In this document: positions 60,441-62,358 of the stretch, one piece after another | Position numbering within the stretch: the first letter of the stretch is position 1 | How the letters are laid out: every line of letters starts with the position of its first letter | Sequence record: PZ386959.1 | Origin: a phage | DNA length: 64,000 nucleotides | Reading direction: 5' to 3' (one strand) | Translations under genes and position numbers: made by a program | The notes under the pieces: generated by a model | Databases searched by the model: none | Told to the model about the DNA's origin: nothing | Seen by the model: only the letters and a program-made list of their open reading frames with translations

Positions 60441-60520
60441 ATGGGACGATGTTAAGACTCTAAGGCATGAGCAACGGCCTCCAAAACCGTTTCAAAGGGG
60501 TTCAACTCCTCCGTCCCATG
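60441..60520 (+). tRNA. tRNA-Trp(CCA) with atypically long D-region
   Basis: Perfect acceptor ATGGGAC/GTCCCAT, loop CTCCAAA; 80 nt, D-arm could not be folded cleanly. Confidence 0.45.
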
Positions 60521-60536
60521 CCAAAGTCTTATTAGG

Positions 60537-60624
60537 GGTAGGTAGCGGCTAATGGCAGCCAAACAGTCTTGAAAACTGTTGCCACTGTAGAGATACGGTG
60601 AGGGTTCGACTCCTTTACTTACCG
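60537..60624 (+). tRNA. tRNA-Ser(TGA)
   Basis: 88 nt; anticodon stem ACAGT/ACTGT perfect, loop CTTGAAA, long variable arm, T-arm GAGGG-TTCGACT. Confidence 0.6.
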
Positions 60625-60780
60625 CCTAATAAGATTTACTCCGTCCATGCTTGTTCGCATTGTCGGTTTATCCCTCGTGTATTGTCGTACACTGTCAAAG
60701 CACCTAGTAGGTGTCACGGAGAAGAGATAATATCAAGCTCTCCAAAGGTTCTAGTCACCGGATTAAACAAGACTATGCAA

Positions 60781-60800
60781 AGACCTATTTAGGTCTTTTT
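60781..60800 (+). terminator. intrinsic terminator
   Basis: AGACCT-ATTT-AGGTCT followed by TTTTT. Confidence 0.55.
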
Positions 60801-60880
60801 AGAGGGCTTCTAAGGTTATTAGTCGCTTGTTGTGGAACCTTGTTGCTTAGGTTCTTAGAAGTTCTCTAAAAAGATTTAAT

Positions 60881-60955
60881 GGGAGATTGACGGTAATTGG
60901 TAAACCTACCATCCTTAGAAGTTGGTGTTTGAGGGTTCGAATCCCTTGTCTCCTA
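60881..60955 (+). tRNA. tRNA-Leu(TAG)? short variable arm
   Basis: Acceptor GGGAGAT/GTCTCCT, T-arm GAGGG-TTCGAAT-CCCTT, loop CTTAGAA; isotype tentative. Confidence 0.45.
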
Positions 60956-60965
60956 CCAAATTAAT

Positions 60966-61038
60966 GCAGGTGTAGCAAAATGGTTATGCGGCTGACTCTT
61001 AATCAGTAAGACGATGGGTTCAATTCCCTCCACCTGTA
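60966..61038 (+). tRNA. tRNA-Lys(CTT)
   Basis: Paralogue of tRNA at 59667 (same frame, loop CTCTTAA); acceptor GCAGGTG/CACCTGT. Confidence 0.5.
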
Positions 61039-61047
61039 CCAAACAAT

Positions 61048-61120
61048 GGGGTCATAGTTTATATGGTTAAAATTCGAGTTTTGCAAACTTGGGAACTGAG
61101 TTCAATTCTCAGTGACTCCA
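61048..61120 (+). tRNA. tRNA-Ala(TGC)
   Basis: Acceptor GGGGTCA/TGACTCC, loop TTTGCAA, T-arm CTGAG-TTCAATT-CTCAG. Confidence 0.55.
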
Positions 61121-61129
61121 CCAATTAGT

Positions 61130-61201
61130 GCATCCATAGTTTAAACGGGAAAATTACAGTCTTCCAAACTGAGGTTGAGGGTTCGATTCCCTCTGGATGC
61201 T
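61130..61201 (+). tRNA. tRNA-Gly(TCC)
   Basis: Perfect acceptor GCATCCA/TGGATGC, loop CTTCCAA, T-arm GAGGG-TTCGATT-CCCTC. Confidence 0.6.
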
Positions 61202-61211
61202 CCAAATTAAT

Positions 61212-61284
61212 GCTCCTATCGTATAATTGGCTATTACGGTTGCCTTGTAAGCAACTTATCAGGGTTCGAATCCTTGTGGGAGCA
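61212..61284 (+). tRNA. tRNA-Thr(TGT)
   Basis: Acceptor GCTCCTA/TGGGAGC, anticodon stem GTTGC/GCAAC perfect, loop CTTGTAA. Confidence 0.6.
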
Positions 61285-61384
61285 CCAATTCAGAGGTCAA
61301 GTGAAAGACCGCTTTGAGTCAACTGAAGACCGTAACAAATTCCACGGAGTTGAGTTAGCGGCACAACTCCAGACCTCTTCTCAC

Positions 61385-61456
61385 ACTCGCTTAGTTTATA
61401 TGGTAAAACATCACCCTTACAAGATGAAGAAAAAGGTTCAAGTCCTTTAGTGAGTA
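61385..61456 (+). tRNA. tRNA-Val(TAC)
   Basis: Acceptor ACTCGCT/AGTGAGT, loop CTTACAA, T-arm AAAGG-TTCAAGT-CCTTT. Confidence 0.55.
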
Positions 61457-61460
61457 CCAT

Positions 61461-61535
61461 GTTCCAGTATCCCAATTGGCAGAGGATGCAAGCTCAAACC
61501 TTGTACTAGTGACGGTTCGAATCCGTCTTGGAACA
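61461..61535 (+). tRNA. tRNA-Leu(CAA)? short variable arm
   Basis: Acceptor GTTCCAG/TTGGAAC, loop CTCAAAC, T-arm GACGG-TTCGAAT-CCGTC; isotype tentative. Confidence 0.5.
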
Positions 61536-61543
61536 CCAATTTT

Positions 61544-61616
61544 GCAGGATTAGTTCAAATGGATAGAGCAACAGTCTACGAAGCTGTTAATAGGGGTTCG
61601 AATCCCTTATCCTGCG
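61544..61616 (+). tRNA. tRNA-Arg(ACG)
   Basis: Perfect acceptor GCAGGAT/ATCCTGC, D-arm TAGTTCAAATGGATAGAGC, loop CTACGAA. Confidence 0.6.
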
Positions 61617-61638
61617 CCAATTTAAAGAGGCTATTTAG

Positions 61639-62196
61639 ATGAGATATTTGAAGTATGCTTCATGGATTTTCTTAGCTTTGTTAGAACCATTTGCAGCAAT
61701 CTTAGCAGTTATCTTAGCACCTTTTGTAGTTCCATTTTACAGTGAGAAGAAAGGACACTTACCTTTCGGATTTAGATGGATGGAAACTTATGACAACCCA
61801 ATTGATGGTGATGAAGGTCACGTTAAGAGATGGGCTAATATTAGATGGATTGGTAAGCTTGGTGTCTATATGCAGAGAGTCGGTTGGCTCTGGAGAAACA
61901 AAGCTTATAACTTCTCTTACCATGTATTAGGAAGAGATGTAAAAGATGTTACCAAGTGGAAAGGCAATATCAACGTAAGTTCTAACCCTGAAGATAATCA
62001 GACAGGTTATCTCCTAATGTGGAACAGCAATGCTTGGGGATTATTCGCTTTTATCCCATCAATTAAAATCTTTGGTAAACAGTTTTACTGGAGAATTTAT
62101 ATTGGGTGGAAGCTAAAAAGTGTTGTCCCAGAAGAAAGAGCATTCTCAAGGGAAAGAGTTATGTTGGCATTCTTTATTCATCCACTAAGAAAGTAA
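61639..62196 (+). CDS. membrane protein embedded in the tRNA cluster
   Basis: 185 aa; N-terminal TM helix (WIFLALLEPFAAILAVILAPFVV), Trp-rich. Confidence 0.5.
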   Translation: MRYLKYASWIFLALLEPFAAILAVILAPFVVPFYSEKKGHLPFGFRWMETYDNPIDGDEGHVKRWANIRWIGKLGVYMQRVGWLWRNKAYNFSYHVLGRDVKDVTKWKGNINVSSNPEDNQTGYLLMWNSNAWGLFAFIPSIKIFGKQFYWRIYIGWKLKSVVPEERAFSRERVMLAFFIHPLRK

Positions 62197-62204
62197 AGAT
62201 TTAA

Positions 62205-62277
62205 AGGGGATTAGTTTACAAGGTTAAAACCTCGGTCTTTGAAATCGAAGAAGTTGGTTCAATTCCAACATCCCCCG
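62205..62277 (+). tRNA. tRNA-Gln(TTG)
   Basis: Acceptor AGGGGAT/ATCCCCC (A1-C72 mismatch), loop CTTTGAA, T-arm GTTGG-TTCAATT-CCAAC. Confidence 0.55.
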
Positions 62278-62282
62278 CCAAT

Positions 62283-62358
62283 GCTCCATTACTCCAATTG
62301 GCAGAGAGGCCAGACTTAAAATCTGTGTTATGTATCGGTTCGAATCCGATATGGAGTA
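62283..62358 (+). tRNA. tRNA-Leu(TAA)? short variable arm
   Basis: Acceptor GCTCCAT/ATGGAGT, loop CTTAAAA, T-arm ATCGG-TTCGAAT-CCGAT; isotype tentative. Confidence 0.45.

Follow-up and report, generated by a model that had tools for sequence, protein, structure and literature searches.

The window analysed here is a stretch of phage DNA of 64,000 nucleotides (nt; sequence record PZ386959.1), and its region 60441–62358 holds four transfer RNA (tRNA) genes of unusual build: three leucine tRNAs (tRNA-Leu) that lack the long variable arm, and a tryptophan tRNA (tRNA-Trp) with an expanded D-region. The 6 kb around these genes is of the genus Felixounavirus (Felix O1-like, Ounavirinae), with 95–98% identity to genomes of that genus and a top match of 97.6% to Escherichia phage vB_EcoM_ULIM8. 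We consider it likely that all four genes yield phage tRNAs that work, although their structure is non-standard. The genes, and the parts of the Trp gene, are as follows.

60881..60958, + strand: tRNA-Leu(UAG), armless (type I), called by ARAGORN; 75 nt plus CCA (78), anticodon 60916–60918, 5-nt variable loop, A73, G1·U72.
61461..61538, + strand: tRNA-Leu(CAA), armless, called by ARAGORN; 75 nt plus CCA (78), anticodon 61495–61497, 6-nt variable loop, A73, U48.
62283..62361, + strand: tRNA-Leu(UAA), armless, called by ARAGORN; 76 nt plus CCA (79), anticodon 62317–62319, 7-nt variable loop, A73, U48, G1·U72.
60441..60523, + strand: non-canonical tRNA-Trp(CCA); 80 nt (60441–60520) plus CCA; metazoan-mitochondrial call of ARAGORN, cloverleaf as minimum-free-energy (MFE) fold.
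Trp gene, 5′ part: acceptor stem 60441–60447 with 60513–60519 (perfect 7 base pairs, bp); connector of about 10 nt, 60448–60457; D stem 60458–60460 with 60469–60471.
Trp gene, loops and 3′ end: D loop 60461–60468; anticodon 60481–60483; T loop 60501–60507; G73 at 60520.

ARAGORN draws a cloverleaf for each of the three Leu genes, and the Rfam tRNA model RF00005 scores them at 40.0 bits [Leu(UAG)], 43.6 bits [Leu(CAA)] and 47.5 bits [Leu(UAA)], with E = 5.5e-6 to 4.6e-8. These scores lie above the gathering score of 29; thus, the matches are not due to chance. The initial annotation had described genes of 75–76 nt with TAG, CAA and TAA anticodons, variable regions of 5–7 nt and discriminator A, and the ARAGORN folding returns the same three anticodons with short variable loops (75, 75 and 76 nt in length; 5, 6 and 7 nt in the loop; A73) and rejects none of the three. 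It had also left a choice between mistaken isotype or structure calls and a phage that encodes non-canonical tRNAs. The calls are upheld by ARAGORN and RF00005, and the second option agrees with the ARAGORN Leu calls and with the conserved, covariation-supported tRNA shape of the Trp gene described below. The 5, 6 and 7 nt of the variable loops are unpaired, whereas a class II arm has more than 10 nt and forms a stem-loop; with a Leu anticodon, a variable loop of 4–7 nt and A73, the three genes have the make-up of type I tRNA-Leu.

We compared these genes with leuZ, leuX and leuW of Escherichia coli, which carry the same anticodons in long-armed tRNAs of 87, 85 and 85 nt. The D-arms of Leu(CAA), with a 3-bp stem and the 11-nt loop CAAUUGGCAGA, and of Leu(UAA), also with a 3-bp stem and an 11-nt loop, fit the host D-arm exactly, in the register NAAYYGGYARA common to the three host genes. 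Leu(UAG) shows the same loop motif with an irregular stem, drawn either as a GGU/ACC stem displaced by 2 nt or in the homologous register with a C×C mismatch. Among its variants in Felix-like phages there are three double changes, and the U·U mismatch of the anticodon stem is repaired. The window genes therefore resemble the class II tRNA-Leu of E. coli (leuW, leuX and leuZ) and of phage T5 (85 nt) in their anticodons, 3-bp/11-nt D-arm, A73 and U48, and differ from them in having 5–7 unpaired nt where the class II tRNAs form a variable-arm hairpin of 12–17 nt. We suggest that the three isoacceptors are class II leucine tRNAs after loss of the long variable arm.

GenBank already lists all three genes as tRNA-Leu, also in the record of the Felix O1 type genome. 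Of 264 phage records that match Leu(UAA), 216 do so at 99% identity or more, Felix O1 among them, and none of 5,426 complete E. coli genomes was matched by it in a blastn search. At the Leu(UAG) slot, the genus has two alleles that are unrelated, namely that of the window (GGGAGAU…, with the irregular D-arm) and a regular armless one (GCACCUA…, locus L001, 3279–3354, and relatives); a long-arm tRNA-Leu is absent from every Felix-like locus examined, both alleles of this slot included. Salmonella phage FG1m (locus L009, 5999–6076) has a chimeric tRNA whose 5′ part comes from Leu(CAA) and whose 3′ part comes from Leu(UAA), with a broken acceptor stem; it evidently arose by deletion between the identical T-arm sequences of the two genes. 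A G1·U72 wobble closes the acceptor stem in six of the 26 tRNAs called in the window (Lys twice, Ile, Arg(UCU), Leu(UAG) and Leu(UAA)). The same wobble occurs in 36–41% of armless phage tRNA-Leu (IMG/VR loci L011–L130), and it is common in phage Glu and Val tRNAs too.

Armless tRNA-Leu is widespread in phages and is not peculiar to the window phage. We scanned IMG/VR with a motif that joins the D-loop of tRNA-Leu to a Leu-type anticodon loop and a T-loop at short spacing, which gave at least 120 loci; the frequencies from these motif-restricted scans are rough and cover only the matches listed, which lessens their weight for our interpretation. In the listed loci, ARAGORN finds at least 225 tRNA-Leu, 177 of them armless (170 distinct) and 48 long-armed. 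The armless genes are uniform in their main features: A73 is present in 165 of the 177, a variable loop of 5 nt in 148, U as the last variable nucleotide in 176, and a 3-bp D stem with an 11-nt loop in about 145. When the scan was repeated like for like with both spacings permitted, the matches listed comprised 33 genes without the arm and 88 with it (27% armless).

We aligned 97 armless sequences without gaps, 94 of them at less than 90% mutual identity and the other three from an Aeromonas phage. T8, A14, A15, G18, G19, A20a, U48 and A73 are invariant, 98.1% of the cells of the helices are paired, and double changes occur in every one of the 20 pairs. Covariation scores 1.019, compared with 0.239 in shuffles and no more than 0.198 with slid partners. 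The Leu signature (3-bp D stem with 11-nt loop, A73 and U48) is found in 46% of the armless tRNA-Leu that were not selected by the motif and equally in 46% of the long-arm ones, and no other isotype exceeds 9%; thus, the armless genes look like ordinary tRNA-Leu minus the arm.

Up to 663 phage records cover 80% or more of the length of a consensus armless sequence, with Salmonella, Escherichia, Mycobacterium, Streptomyces, Pseudomonas, Vibrio, Gordonia, cyanobacterial, Myxococcus and Enterococcus hosts. The sampled matches at this coverage are single pieces, whose length in the record equals the query span. Confirmed examples are a 74-nt Leu gene in the T5-like E. coli phage SP15 and Leu genes of 74–76 nt in mycobacteriophage Koguma. 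The T5-like Aeromonas phage AhP_Mru1 has three tRNA-Leu of 77 nt with the same three anticodons as the window, and T5 itself has a long-arm Leu(UAG) of 85 nt. Regarding bacterial genomes, 74 of the 120 matches listed for the same motif are armless tRNA-Leu in Actinomycetota chromosomes, mostly a lone Leu(UAA) (loci L158–L277), in genera that include Nocardia, Mycobacterium, Gordonia, Pseudonocardia, Arthrobacter and Bifidobacterium. Armless tRNA-Leu is common in Actinomycetota, in agreement with Fan et al. 2019 (PMC6614811).

The loss of the arm raises the matter of which amino acid these tRNAs carry. The leucine identity set of E. coli consists of A73, the A15–U48 pair, G18G19, A20a and the tertiary pairs that link D-loop and T-loop (PMC9976931). 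All three window genes have A73, A15–U48, G18G19 and A20a, together with U8–A14, U54, U55, C56 and A58. For leucyl-tRNA synthetase (LeuRS) of E. coli, the sequence and folding of the long arm are irrelevant to leucylation, and armless variants stay active (PMC9976931, its refs 53 and 60–62). Since the nucleotides read by this enzyme are retained in the Leu genes, leucylation by the host LeuRS would be expected, and the enzyme probably charges the armless phage tRNA-Leu because it does not need the arm. The identity nucleotides, like the sequences, folds, conservation, covariation and distribution, are observed directly, and aminoacylation by the host is what we infer from them.

A different reading is that the three tRNAs with Leu anticodons are charged with another amino acid and recode leucine codons. 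They lack the hallmark of class II, and A73 is common to many other isotypes. However, none of the three genes has G3:U70, the mark of Ala, or G73 with the long arm, the mark of Ser, and most other E. coli synthetases read the anticodon; thus, leucine is also reached by elimination. The D-arm, A15–U48 and A73 further match tRNA-Leu and no other isotype, and we regard recoding as scarcely credible.

Three known systems resemble the window genes in part. The type I tRNA-Leu(CAA) of Streptomyces coelicolor (PMC6614811) also has a 5-nt variable loop, is charged by a bacterial LeuRS and shares U8–A14 as an identity element. It differs in being a single chromosomal isoacceptor whose host LeuRS is adapted to it, whereas the window phage has three isoacceptors and hosts with only long-arm tRNA-Leu. 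The tRNA-Leu of animal mitochondria likewise has no long arm, and its identity lies mainly in A73 and A14; it is, however, organellar, is served by its own LeuRS and often has degenerate D- and T-loops, whereas the phage genes keep G18G19 and canonical T-loops. A third parallel is with the engineered armless tRNA-Leu of E. coli (PMC9976931), for which LeuRS needs A73 and the D/T tertiary core, nucleotides that the phage genes keep. Those molecules are laboratory constructs, whereas the phage genes are natural, conserved and diverse.

To place the arm loss in its setting, we considered the tRNA array of the window as a whole, with the members that keep a long variable arm.

58545..63556, all + strand: tRNA array of 26 genes called by ARAGORN, covering 19 amino acids; the same array occurs in Felixounavirus records at 95–98% identity.
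59037–59124, + strand: tRNA-Tyr, 88 nt, long variable arm kept.
60537–60626, + strand: tRNA-Ser(UGA), 90 nt, long variable arm kept.
63384–63476, + strand: tRNA-Ser(GCU), 93 nt, long variable arm kept.

Arm loss within the array is confined to Leu; the Ser and Tyr tRNAs are long-armed. The phage Ser and Tyr tRNAs would keep their arms because seryl-tRNA synthetase (SerRS) and bacterial tyrosyl-tRNA synthetase (TyrRS) use the arm; the LeuRS of E. coli does not, and only Leu may thus be free to lose it. In the long open reading frames (ORFs) of the window, whose GC content is 38.8%, leucine is encoded by TTA (25%), CTT (28.5%), TTG (13%), CTA (10%), CTG (17%) and CTC (6.5%). In E. coli, CTG makes up about half of the leucine codons. 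The armless tRNAs may therefore decode A/U-rich leucine codons that the phage uses heavily and E. coli serves poorly. Translation is the best-supported explanation for the Leu genes and the Trp gene alike; we infer use on the ribosome, as well as the reason for the arm loss, from these data.

This reason could simply be neutral streamlining, by which deletions of an arm dispensable for LeuRS are tolerated and become fixed in compact tRNA arrays with no special benefit. The arm is dispensable in vitro for the E. coli enzyme (PMC9976931), it is lost only in Leu, whose synthetase alone among those of class II tRNAs disregards it, and armless and long-arm Leu genes coexist in many viral contigs. 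The saving, however, is merely about 10 nt per gene. Moreover, the 5-nt loop (148 of 177) and U48 (176 of 177) are uniform among the listed armless genes across distant phage groups, which looks like maintenance. We take streamlining, under which the armless genes would serve just as any tRNA-Leu does, to be possible, if rather unlikely.

The Trp gene also has a non-standard fold. Its MFE structure is a cloverleaf in which the acceptor stem is followed by about 10 unpaired nt and then by a 3-bp D stem, CUC/GAG, closing an 8-nt loop with GG; the anticodon loop is CUCCAAA and the T loop is UUCAACU. The connector of about 10 nt corresponds to 2 nt in a normal tRNA, and about 7 extra nt lie between the acceptor and D stems. 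The perfect acceptor, the length of 80 nt and the oversized D-region given in the initial annotation all stand; its description of the D-region as unfoldable does not, since the 3-bp stem with the 8-nt GG loop forms. The gene has the E. coli Trp identity nucleotides (anticodon CCA, G73 and A1–U72) and lacks the 2-nt connector and 4-bp D stem of a canonical tRNA. It shares a nearly identical 3′ D strand and anticodon arm with trpT of E. coli; relative to that gene, the extra nt fall between the acceptor and D stems.

Standard searches fail on this gene. The bacterial mode of ARAGORN reports nothing here at -ps90 or -ps80, and allowing introns or lowering the thresholds does no better; a tRNA-Pyl(cta) call over the gene at -ps70 and -ps60 is a spurious misfold. 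A 111-nt search against RF00005 at E ≤ 10 lists no match and thus does not place the gene in that family. The metazoan-mitochondrial mode of ARAGORN (-mt) calls mtRNA-Trp(cca) at exactly 60441–60523. We also rejected a selenocysteine tRNA (tRNA-Sec, RF01852), which is the best-scoring model of the Rfam clan but stays below its threshold (23 bits vs 47), as the anticodon is CCA and not UCA, there is no long arm and the 6-bp D stem that goes with an 8-bp acceptor stem in tRNA-Sec is not possible. A pseudoknot between ATG and CAT in the D-region found no support.

Variation among relatives bears on the fold. Thirty Felix-like copies fall into a few variants with seven distinct sequences, which always keep the anticodon CCA and G73 and have either A1:U72 or G1·U72 at 1:72. 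In a diverged lineage of two contigs, the D stem is CAC/GUG (U:A to A:U) and four anticodon-stem pairs are changed on both sides, with the connector unchanged. Over the seven sequences, the model with the D stem at 18–20:29–31 is 99.2% paired with five double changes. We prefer this D stem because it is 100% paired with a double change, whereas a stem at the canonical position (10–13:30–33, with a 16-nt loop) is broken at pair 13:30 in the diverged allele; the D stem drawn by ARAGORN -mt is likewise broken there.

Two further alleles were observed at the locus. Allele B, in Felix O1 (AF320576; locus L278, 1734–1816) and nine IMG/VR Felix-like contigs, has C to U at position 32 and A to C at position 38 with CCA kept; these two positions are those changed in phage tRNAs reported to evade anticodon nucleases (PMC10264068). 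In E. coli O157 typing phage 15 (TP15; locus L003, 3647–3717) and in loci L135 and L143, a 71-nt tRNA-Trp plus CCA with a tiny D-arm (GCU AUGGC AGC) is found at the same locus. This allele occurs in some Felixounavirus/Suspvirus genomes and resembles the 71-nt tRNA-Trp of T5; in typing phage 15 an additional ORF of 405 nt comes after it. Regarding annotation, no gene is marked at the position of 60441–60523 in phage fjerdesal, typing phage 1 or Felix O1, and among 40 family records sampled, a tRNA-Trp is annotated at the locus only in those with a different allele.

To analyse the D-region in other phages, we scanned CCA-anticodon phage tRNAs for the distance from the 5′ end of the acceptor to the anticodon stem. 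This distance is 25–26 nt in most phage tRNA-Trp, 33 nt in the Felix type, 22 nt in T5 and the TP15 type, and 34 nt in the unrelated Bacillus phage BCP8-2. The T5 gene (71 nt) and the TP15/SUSP1 allele share with the window gene a non-standard D-region, G73 and the CUCCAAA loop, and T5 also has the C31·A39 mismatch; however, their D-arm is shrunken (3-bp stem, 5-nt loop), whereas the connector of the window gene is expanded. About 43 Bacillus phage records contain the 84-nt Bacillus phage tRNA-Trp in conserved form; its label is tRNA-Trp(cca) in TsarBomba and tRNA-Trp in Thrax2, and five others leave it unannotated. Seven distinct sequences of it show covariation in all helices, the 3-bp D stem included. 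Like the window gene, the genes of TsarBomba, Thrax2, BCP8-2 and others have a 7-bp acceptor, a connector of 10–11 nt, a 3-bp D stem, a D loop of 8–9 nt with GG, the loop CUCCAAA, the A49·C65 mismatch, G73 and an encoded CCA. Their sequence is only loosely similar, and in them (locus L350, 3663–3743, − strand; loci L368–L374) the connector positions 11–13 can pair with the variable loop at 53–55, where 12:54 covaries as A:U and G:C. This suggests an extra helix in the core of the Bacillus phage tRNA, whereas the window gene can form at most 2 bp of such a pairing.

These comparisons bear on whether the Trp-like gene translates at all, or instead yields a tRNA-like stable RNA or a decoy, or is a decaying pseudogene. 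Such a role would fit the failure of both the bacterial mode of ARAGORN and RF00005, the A·C and C·A mismatches at 49:65 and 31:39, the several annotated tRNA-like stable RNAs of T5, and the relatives in which the 71-nt Trp gene stands in its place. It fits poorly with the CCA anticodon, U33, G73 and encoded CCA end of every copy, with the compensatory changes in two stems and with the same architecture in Bacillus phages. Furthermore, Trp is the sole amino acid without a gene among the 26 tRNAs called in the array; thus, the gene completes the amino acid set and supplies exactly the one that is missing. We therefore think a non-translating product unlikely. From its sequence and conservation, 60441–60523 appears to be a conserved long-connector tRNA, overlooked by standard finders, and it would function in translation as a phage tRNA-Trp, with the E. 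coli Trp identity marks, a normal acceptor/T-arm helix and an expanded connector.

Several observations weigh against taking all four genes as working tRNAs. For Leu, Fan et al. 2019 (PMC6614811) report that the armless tRNA-Leu(CAA) from Streptomyces coelicolor is not charged by the LeuRS of E. coli; thus, it cannot be taken for granted that the host enzyme recognises tRNA-Leu independently of the arm. Leu(UAG) in particular has its irregular D-arm together with the U·U mismatch in the anticodon stem. For Trp, the fold energy is unremarkable compared with shuffles (z = −1.4), every bacterial tRNA detector tried misses the gene, and a 10-nt connector would disturb the normal U8–A14 core. The covariation of this gene within the Felix family also rests on one diverged lineage, of two contigs.

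The unusual shapes could also have arisen under attack on host tRNAs. In this proposal, arm loss and remodelling of the Trp D-region would be a widespread counter-measure that escapes enzymes, of the host or of the phage, reading host tRNA architecture; translation of leucine and tryptophan codons would then survive once host tRNAs are inactivated, which is compatible with use in translation. The long arm of class II tRNAs, read by nucleotidyltransferases of the MenT/AbiEii type, would be one such feature. The toxin MenT3 depends on the long variable loop that these tRNAs have, and deletion of the loop abolishes long poly-C extension (PMC11541572), while the abortive-infection toxin AbiEii appears to prefer long-arm class II tRNAs (bioRxiv 10.64898/2026.01.19.700257). 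Phage tRNAs are known to evade tRNA-targeting defences (PMC10264068, PMC11555353). In the present data, the only differences between Trp allele B and that of the window are at positions 32 and 38 of the anticodon loop, and armless Leu genes are frequent in unrelated phages. However, no defence system is known in Enterobacteria that targets tRNA-Leu through the arm, the phage Ser and Tyr tRNAs retain theirs, and many Actinomycetota have a single-copy chromosomal armless tRNA-Leu, for which evasion is not an obvious reason. We find this proposal doubtful, and translation by the four tRNAs remains our preferred reading. If the proposal were true, it would add a second route of tRNA-based defence evasion beside the known changes in the anticodon loop.

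Other features of the array were also recorded. A scan for promoters and terminators in the array gave counts no higher than in shuffles. The 460-nt gap between tRNA-Asp and tRNA-Lys (59208–59666) contains, at 59409–59460, a T-arm-like hairpin (GAAGG UUCGAUU CCUUC) with a partial match to the Rfam tRNA model (model positions 7–64, 22 bits, E = 0.47). The hairpin may be what is left of a tRNA, or belong to a tRNA-like stable RNA as annotated in T5; the fold of the surrounding 59360–59520 is not distinctive. Directly upstream of the array lies an ORF of 471 amino acids (aa; 56964–58379, + strand) with the Pfam domains DUF2828 and DUF7788, named ‘RNA-binding protein’ (RefSeq) or ‘vWFA protein’ in related records, and its adjacency to the tRNA genes may be meaningful. 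A link of this ORF to Ro60 and Y RNA was rejected, as these two domains are all that Pfam reports for it and no PDB sequence matches. Two conserved ORFs lie inside the array, at 61639–62196 (+ strand; DUF7338, 185 aa) and 62648–63382 (+ strand; DUF7217).

Regarding the literature, a review describes tRNA-Leu as long-armed everywhere except in animal mitochondria (PMC9976931), and Streptomyces has been added as a further exception, in a study in which the LeuRS of E. coli charges only the long-arm type (PMC6614811). Our search for reports of armless tRNA-Leu or long-connector tRNA-Trp in phages found none, with most subscription journals outside its coverage. The Felix O1 family of E. coli and Salmonella phages has three tRNA-Leu that are all armless and strongly conserved. 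These genes are natural substrates for asking what LeuRS really needs in a tRNA, and they bear on why the arm can be lost in Leu and stays in Ser and Tyr, and on whether the shape of phage tRNAs helps in evading host defences. The family also appears to have a twentieth tRNA, for Trp, which standard finders miss and which is unannotated in every sampled record that carries it; thus, counts of phage tRNA repertoires would be slightly too low.

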